Source: Escherichia phage PHB11
DNA: 64,000 nt
Reading direction: 5' to 3' (one strand)
Sequence record: MK524176.1
Shown here: piece after piece, positions 12,286 to 12,549 of the stretch
Layout: every line of letters begins with the position of its first letter
Numbering within the stretch: the stretch's first letter is position 1
The notes under the pieces: generated by a model
The model's database searches: none
What the model was told of the DNA's origin: nothing
The model's input: the letters and a program-made list of their open reading frames with translations, nothing else
Program-made: the position numbers and the translations under genes

Positions 12286-12549
12286 CCAAATAGTTAGCAG
12301 ATTGCTTAGACGACCTTATCGGGTCTCCGTGTTGATTCAGATGAGTCAACTTCATAAGGAGGTGGTCTGTATCTCATGTTTTCCAGAACATGTAAATAAT
12401 CTGAGAAGGGGCTTTACAGTGTTGCGAAAATACGGTAAGCTTCGAATTATAGTGTGGGACGATGTTAAGACTCTAAGGCATGAGCAACGGCCTCCAAAAC
12501 CGTTTCAAAGTGGTTCAACTCCTCCGTCCCATGCCAAAGTCTTATTAGG

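Follow-up and report, generated by a model that had tools for sequence, protein, structure and literature searches.

A conserved tRNA-like module in Felix O1-like phages is most likely a tRNA-Trp gene overlooked by standard gene finders

Positions 12454-12536 in the tRNA array of a Felix O1-like myovirus most likely hold a conserved tRNA-Trp gene that standard gene finders have overlooked in Felix O1-like phages. Judging from sequence comparison, we place the probability at about 70% that this element (hereafter, the Trp module) is a functional, structurally non-canonical tRNA-Trp that completes the phage tRNA set. Positions refer to the 64-kb stretch of Escherichia phage PHB11 that we analyzed (sequence record MK524176.1; hereafter, the window), in which the segment 11870-12900 has 97% identity to Salmonella phage MBP4696116 and Escherichia phage JH2. 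Felix O1-like phages have a classic place in typing and biocontrol, with hundreds of sequenced genomes.

Using ARAGORN in default mode, we identified 26 tRNA genes on the + strand of the window between 10515 and 16100; Rfam also found 24 of them at gathering score. The called tRNAs cover 19 amino acids, with Trp as the sole gap, and 25 of the 26 carry an encoded CCA. The one without it, tRNA-Ser(tga), ends in ...GCC (the bases that follow are TAA), and it also has the lowest Rfam tRNA score in the array (33.2 bits). Between tRNA-Arg(tct) and this tRNA-Ser(tga) lies a gap of 260 nt, which contains the Trp module (Table 1). In this gap, the first-pass annotation had pointed out a hairpin, a Shine-Dalgarno motif with a micro-ORF, and a 59-nt tRNA-like segment lacking a D arm, and it had left a choice between a leader-peptide-type unit and a degenerate tRNA. 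The sequence elements that it described are present in the window, with corrections to their positions.

Table 1. Features of the gap between tRNA-Arg(tct) and tRNA-Ser(tga), in window coordinates.
Feature	Position	Strand	Basis or remark
tRNA-Arg(tct)	12212-12288	+	5' neighbor of the gap
Conserved non-coding spacer	12289-12453	+	alignment of 20 versions; present with either Trp allele
Hairpin GTTGATTCA-GA-TGAGTCAAC, 9 bp, one G.U	12331-12350	+	fold; unique in the window
Shine-Dalgarno-like AAGGAGGT	12356-12363	+	AGGGAGGT in half of the relatives
7-codon ORF MFSRTCK	12376-12399	+	judged non-coding
Possible weak sigma-70-type promoter TTTACA-17-TAAGCT	12413-12441	+	12 nt 5' of the module; below scan criteria
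Candidate non-canonical tRNA-Trp(CCA) gene	12454-12536	+	83 nt including G73 and encoded CCA; RNAalifold cloverleaf, 13 versions
Acceptor stem, 5' strand GTGGGACG	12454-12461	+	8 bp with 12525-12532; G1.U72 in the window copy
Linker ATGTTAAGA, acceptor to D stem, 9 nt	12462-12470	+	invariant in 13 versions except for one T>C
D arm: 3-bp stem CTC/GAG, 8-nt loop TAAGGCAT containing GG	12471-12484	+	RNAalifold, covariation
Anticodon arm: 5-bp stem AACGG/CCGTT, 9-nt loop CCTCCAAAA	12486-12504	+	stem covariation
Anticodon CCA	12494-12496	+	U before, A after
Variable loop TCAAA, 5 nt, class I	12505-12509	+	invariant
T arm: 4-bp stem GTGG/CCTC, loop TTCAACT	12510-12524	+	U.U at the second pair in the window copy
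Acceptor stem, 3' strand CGTCCCAT, discriminator G (12533), CCA (12534-12536)	12525-12536	+	G73 and CCA invariant
tRNA-Ser(tga)	12550-12639	+	3' neighbor of the gap

The acceptor stem of the Trp module consists of the inverted repeat TGGGACG/CGTCCCA (12455-12461/12525-12531) and, with G1.U72, amounts to 8 bp. No nucleotide separates the T stem from the acceptor 3' strand, giving a branch of 8 + 4 bp that is followed by G73 and CCA. With respect to the 8/4 split, G8:C65 is invariant, A49.C65 is unpairable, and the first T-stem pair covaries between GC and UA. In canonical tRNAs, the acceptor and D stems are joined by 2 nt (positions 8 and 9). The D stem of the module has 3 bp (4 bp in Arno162), and the inner 7 nt of the anticodon loop read Y-U-CCA-A-M; the C.A that flanks them (C.C in Arno162) is never a standard pair. 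Sixteen called tRNAs (family D1) align in exact register with the 3' half of the module.

The earlier description of the segment as tRNA-like was apt, and its T-loop-like GGTTCAACTCC (12512-12522) as well as the complementary GGCATG (12477-12482) and CATGCC (12530-12535) are in place. The label arm-less did not hold, as four arms are each kept by compensatory changes: a small covarying D arm is enclosed by the TGGGACG/CGTCCCA stem, and this longer stem and the D arm turn the 59-nt frame into a unit at 12454-12536. We take GGCATG/CATGCC to be a complementarity of D loop and 3' end rather than an acceptor stem. A possible pairing between TAAGACT of the linker (12466-12472) and AGTCTTA of the 3' trailer (12538-12544) was dismissed as chance; Arno162 lacks it, and the trailer is retained even where the other allele occupies this site.

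ARAGORN, which the first-pass annotation had proposed as a check, made no call at the module in default and -ps modes; only its mitochondrial modes call the region, as mtRNA-Trp(cca) at 12455-12532 with -mt (metazoan-mitochondrial) and as mtRNA-Trp at 12475-12536 in the mammalian-mitochondrial mode. The module was also not among the Rfam matches at gathering score. Within the Rfam clan CL00001, the best match was to tRNA-Sec (21.3 bits versus a threshold of 47), and the Rfam tRNA model (RF00005) scored below 21.3 bits (threshold, 29). It was this weak tRNA-Sec match, at 12456-12530 in a permissive scan, that led us to consider a longer frame; tRNA-Sec itself was rejected, given the sub-threshold score, the CCA anticodon, and the absence of a long variable arm. 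The finders miss the module because of its 8/4 branch, 9-nt linker, 3-bp D stem, and 9-nt anticodon loop. When 6 nt of the linker were removed in silico, default ARAGORN called a 77-nt tRNA-Trp(cca); the versions of the window, pinkbiff, and KPS64 each gave this call. Our covariance model of the module scored 108.8 bits at 12454-12536 and found one copy per genome, and nearly all of its other matches were ordinary tRNAs, with alignments extending from position 1 through the CCA. The module is annotated in none of the records examined or matches listed, including those annotated with tRNAscan-SE, and Felix O1 itself has an unannotated copy (locus L168, 1084-1166).

Using BLAST, we found the Trp module in about 229 phage records. 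It is a separate unit, because some relatives match the window only to 12453 and Pectobacterium phages match only ~12449-12529. For covariation analysis, we aligned 13 distinct versions from Felixounavirus, Mooglevirus, Suspvirus, and Pectobacterium/Yersinia phages. Metagenomes supplied 4 further versions, for 17 distinct versions in all. In viral contigs, a 14-mer scan returned mostly chance matches, and a gapped pattern tied to the T loop was used instead. A scan of 185,579 bacterial and archaeal species genomes yielded no copy of the module.

Overall identity between module lineages is ~75%, and standard pairs occupy 99.2% of the pair cells across the 13 versions. Both sides changed in 8 of the 20 pairs, with at least one such pair in each of the four helices; in controls with the 3' partners slid by 1-3 columns, 0 pairs changed on both sides, and none of 500 shuffles reached the observed covariation score. 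Pair 1:72 is AU in seven versions, GU in four (including the window), and GC in two, and pair 2:71 is UA in 11 and CG in two. In the D stem, the middle pair is UA in seven versions and AU in six, and the outer pair is CG in 12 and UG in one. Four of the five anticodon-stem pairs changed on both sides, and the first T-stem pair is GC in 11 versions and UA in two. The sole broken pair cells are a T-stem U.U in two of the 13 versions (the window copy and one other), at a position where most relatives have G.U. Because the 13 versions stem from few lineages, these compensatory changes represent a handful of events. The CCA anticodon is invariant in the 17 distinct versions; U33, A37, the D-loop GG, the T loop (TTCAACT or TTCGAAT), G73, and the CCA end are invariant across the four phage lineages.

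The module shares with bacterial tRNA-Trp(CCA) the U-CCA-A-A anticodon loop, G73, G5:C68, and an encoded CCA (PMC12135181), as well as a 5-nt variable loop, a T loop of the form TTCRANT, the D-loop GG, and, in most versions, A1:U72. The identity set of E. coli tryptophanyl-tRNA synthetase (TrpRS) comprises the anticodon triplet, the major discriminator G73, and the minor elements A1:U72 and G5:C68 (PMC12135181); this set is present in the module apart from pair 1:72, which varies between versions and is G1.U72 in the window copy, and G5:C68 is invariant. Unlike bacterial tRNA-Trp, the module has an 8/4 rather than a 7/5 branch, a linker of 9 nt rather than 2 nt, a 3-bp D stem, and an extra unpaired C.A layer that enlarges the anticodon loop to 9 nt, and it scores under the Rfam and ARAGORN thresholds.

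The nearest structural precedents of the module are bacterial and phage 8/4 tRNAs, with which it shares the 8/4 split of a 12-bp acceptor branch, as described in the relevant passages of Mukai et al. (PMC5389517) and of a review (PMC7609411). The 8/4 tRNAs of those passages in PMC5389517 are built with a long variable arm and a long D stem capped by a tetraloop, and their identity is Ser (or His, Cys), whereas the module is class I, with a 5-nt variable loop, a 3-bp D stem, an 8-nt D loop, and the identity set of Trp; neither source describes an 8/4 tRNA-Trp in its passages on 8/4 tRNAs. Metazoan mitochondrial D-arm-less tRNAs are similar in that the module is called only by the mitochondrial modes of ARAGORN; however, the module differs from them in having a covarying D arm, a canonical T arm and T loop, and an encoded CCA.

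In wV8-type phages (e.g., KP869106 and NC_012749), the same slot holds a 71-nt tRNA-Trp(cca) that is called by ARAGORN, followed by a gene for a 134-aa HNH endonuclease. As with the window module, this cassette is flanked by the conserved spacer on its 5' side and by tRNA-Ser(tga) on its 3' side. The cassette occurs in 23 phage records, compared with about 229 for the module, and because it occupies the position in ~10% of relatives, we describe the position as a "Trp tRNA" slot with two exchangeable alleles. Both alleles are present within each of Felixounavirus, Suspvirus, and Mooglevirus, and among the matches listed, wV8-type records have no second place with the module. The wV8-type tRNA-Trp resembles the module in its position, its G73-CCA end, and its anticodon loop CTCCAAA; it differs from the module in its length of 71 nt, 7/5 branch, reduced D arm, and ARAGORN call, and its stems are unrelated in sequence to those of the module (27.3 bits with the covariance model of the module). 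In some records, it is annotated as "tRNA-OTHER" or "pseudo." The HNH endonuclease of the cassette aligned with 48% aa identity (E = 2e-45) to the product of a 137-aa HNH endonuclease ORF of the window (13232-13645, + strand, between tRNA-Gly and tRNA-Thr). Based on this similarity, the endonuclease family appears to populate spacers of the array, which would offer a plausible route for allele exchange. Felix O1 has more HNH genes in other spacers of its array.

A conserved tRNA-shaped RNA need not be used in decoding; it could act as a decoy or inhibitor of a host tRNA-targeting enzyme, as an element for processing or folding of the array, or as an HNH recognition site. Such a role would accommodate the invariant 9-nt linker, which has no role in a normal tRNA, the 9-nt anticodon loop, and the GGCATG/CATGCC complementarity kept in all versions, and a role against host tRNA nucleases has been suggested for phage tRNAs (PMC10264068). 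According to the review passages on irregular 8/4 tRNAs with an extra acceptor/D loop, which are the nearest precedent, E. coli enzymes could not aminoacylate them in vitro (PMC7609411), and this failure counts against the tRNA-Trp reading; 8/4 tRNAs work in E. coli translation, as stated in the corresponding passages of PMC5389517. We nevertheless consider an RNA without decoding use unlikely, since the invariant bases are exactly the TrpRS identity elements (anticodon, G73, and G5:C68) plus U33 and A37, the other allele at the slot is a called tRNA-Trp, and the module provides the one amino acid that is missing from the array.

It is very improbable that the module is a decaying tRNA-Trp pseudogene, with an insertion and mismatches, from which selection has been lost. 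Both-side changes preserve pairing in four helices, and loops and anticodon are invariant across lineages that are only ~75% identical. These findings stand against the rejection of the module by standard finders and Rfam thresholds, the T-stem U.U and G1.U72 of the window copy, and the unremarkable energy of its single-sequence fold (z = -0.56, no better than shuffles), all of which a pseudogene would explain. The degenerate tRNA envisaged in the first-pass annotation is similarly at odds with a module that is kept in ~229 records of four lineages with its anticodon, G73, and CCA end intact.

A translated leader peptide that regulates downstream expression, read from the Shine-Dalgarno-like motif and the 7-codon ORF, is scarcely credible. 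The ORF (ATG TTT TCC AGA ACA TGT AAA TAA) was correctly described, and the block from AGGAGGTGG to its stop codon hardly varies among Felix-like, Moogle-like, and Susp-like phages. However, three of the 19 spacer versions have lost one nucleotide, which shifts the frame and yields unrelated products of 16-20 aa, and variation of the synonymous type is absent because the other 16 versions are identical in nucleotides; across related phages, the tRNA-like unit is conserved, but the frame of the micro-ORF is not always kept. The ATG is buried in a hairpin (CATGTT/AACATG, 12375-12392), the peptide has no Trp codon, and there is no terminator-like site in the gap. The motif AAGGAGGT had been called strong and placed 9 nt before the ATG; the distance is 12 nt, and with 1 match in 64 kb versus 2.05 expected by chance, the motif is statistically unremarkable. 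In the consensus fold of the spacer, it is predicted to pair with the upstream GCAGATTGCT, a pairing that has no covarying support. We judge the ORF to be incidental and non-coding.

The 165-nt spacer that precedes the module folds somewhat better than its shuffles (z = -2.24); however, both-side changes are missing from all 41 consensus pairs, and because the consensus fold lacks covariation, no structure can be claimed for this region. The spacer has no Rfam match of note. Its 9-bp hairpin is real in sequence, and it lies seven bases before the interval 12338-12357 in which it had been placed. This hairpin has a folding energy of -9.3 kcal/mol (z = -2.25; 4 of 200 shuffles were as good) and sits inside a 23-nt insert (~12332-12354) that is present in 3 of 20 spacer versions and is not a repeated element within the window. 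In Sf13-like copies, the stem is kept via G-C to A-T changes at its ends; the hairpin is an optional stem-loop. Within the possible promoter at 12413-12441, the hexamers are conserved in the spacer alignment and the stretch between them varies, and Moogle-like copies have TTGACA. No promoter or terminator in the gap between tRNA-Arg and tRNA-Ser passes our scan, and the "promoter" annotation of AYO145A reflects a pattern match on the minus strand and is uninformative. The spacer is probably transcribed and non-coding, and it may contain hairpins for processing or a weak promoter of its own.

Least credible of all is a D-arm-less tRNA of 59-62 nt (12475/12477-12536) with GGCATG/CATGCC as its acceptor stem: the ARAGORN call in mammalian-mitochondrial mode agrees with this frame and its six pairs are kept in 13 of 13 versions (1 pair changed on both sides and 3 on one side), but the pairing support comes from a single lineage split, 5 nt are left unpaired between the T stem and the 3' strand, neither discriminator nor CCA remains because G73 and the CC of CCA are consumed as stem, the covarying 8-bp stem and D stem are ignored, and the register with other tRNAs fits the longer frame.

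Other parts of the array contain tmRNA- and tRNA-like signals of their own. A stretch at 12058-12093 on the + strand (GCA AAC GAC AAT GTT TTT CTG GCA GTA GCT TGA TAG) resembles a tmRNA tag, reading ANDNVFLAVA followed by two stops. Rfam matches in this region were sub-threshold, both for tmRNA_permuted (25.8 bits at 11818-12090, gathering score 47, with a strongly matching resume region) and for tmRNA (15.2 bits at 12022-12211). ARAGORN shows a permuted tmRNA in the window at -ps80 only; in the Moogle-like locus L112, it calls a permuted tmRNA with the same tag, a call that is partly artefactual because its "5' tRNA domain" falls within tRNA-Lys. An ARAGORN ssrA is already mentioned in the genome notes of Moogle and Felix O1 (PMC4319497, PMC4392139). 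These signals of neighboring gaps are separate from the Trp module. Long imperfect hairpins at 12170-12211 and 12800-12894 (+ strand) lie directly 5' of tRNA-Arg(tct) and tRNA-Leu(tag), respectively; both end in AAAGATT(T)AATGCACC, continuous with the tRNA 5' end (repeat family D6), and may be processing structures. The hairpin at 12800-12894 gave spurious matches to microRNA precursors in Rfam.

An uncalled element at 11386-11470 (+ strand) resembles a circularly permuted tRNA. It contains an anticodon-arm-like hairpin and a T arm, GAAGG-TTCGATT-CCTTC (11419-11435), with a partial Rfam tRNA match (22 bits, 11386-11436); 3' of the T arm are ACTCG-gcagatgt-CGAGT (11436-11453) and then a D-arm-like TGGTGTAATGGTAGCAC. 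The equivalent in L112 (...CCTTC ACCCTTC G CCA aaca GAAGGGT TAGTGTAATGGCAGCAC) places a CCA-bearing 3' half ahead of its matching 5' half. Directly after tRNA-Arg(tct), L112 and L138 have an extra block of ~125 nt, absent from the window, with GGTCAAG at its 5' end and GTAGG-TTCAACT-CCTAC CTTGACT G CCA at its 3' end; this block is a further tRNA-like unit without a call, and it carries a long internal insert. The tRNA-Arg(tct) slot itself differs in wV8-type phages (L007, ~517-598) and in Felix O1 (L168, ~503-581), where ARAGORN makes no call. The sequence in this slot has CTTCTAA in an anticodon-like loop, a T arm of GCGGG-TTCGAGT-CCTGC, an ACCA end, and a very short distance between acceptor and anticodon stems.

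If the Trp module is a tRNA-Trp, it would probably share a transcript with the other + strand tRNAs of the array. The strong promoter-like site closest to it is TTGACA-17-TATAGT at 11891-11919 (+ strand), with no terminator-like site in between; this is the best sigma-70-like site in the array (11 of 12), and it sits just 3' of tRNA-Ile and 5' of the tmRNA-tag-like stretch, tRNA-Arg, and the module. Host RNase P and 3' trimming would release an 83-nt RNA ending in the encoded CCA, which host TrpRS could charge via the CCA anticodon and G73, and the charged RNA would read UGG. As a tRNA-Trp, the module would bring the amino acids covered by the phage tRNAs to the full 20.

A separate question is whether the altered core (the 8/4 branch, invariant 9-nt linker, minimal D stem, and 9-nt anticodon loop) is an adaptation and no accident, which we regard as quite improbable. 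An adapted core might make a phage tRNA-Trp invisible to host tRNA-targeting defense, or, by analogy, it might change decoding, for example by allowing UGA read-through. The "Hirsh" suppressor is a tRNA-Trp in which a D-arm mutation leads to UGA read-through. Were the core adaptive, the HNH-linked canonical allele would compete with the module by homing.

In published accounts, the tRNA sets of Felix O1-like phages are incomplete. The paper on Felix O1 lists 22 tRNAs, with no "Trp" or "tryptophan" in its text and no Trp tRNA in rows 1-18 of its table (PMC3185647), and a 2025 study lists 26 tRNAs for "19 different amino acids" in the Moogle-like phage Sf14 (PMC12482277). The module, if it works as a tRNA-Trp, supplies the missing amino acid, and it would then bear on studies of codon usage and of anti-defense roles of phage tRNAs. 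The module would, in addition, represent a naturally occurring class-I tRNA, compatible with the host, that combines an 8/4 branch with a large acceptor/D insertion. Such a tRNA would help to define how much deviation RNase P, TrpRS, EF-Tu, and the ribosome accept, and it could serve as a test case for tRNA finders.
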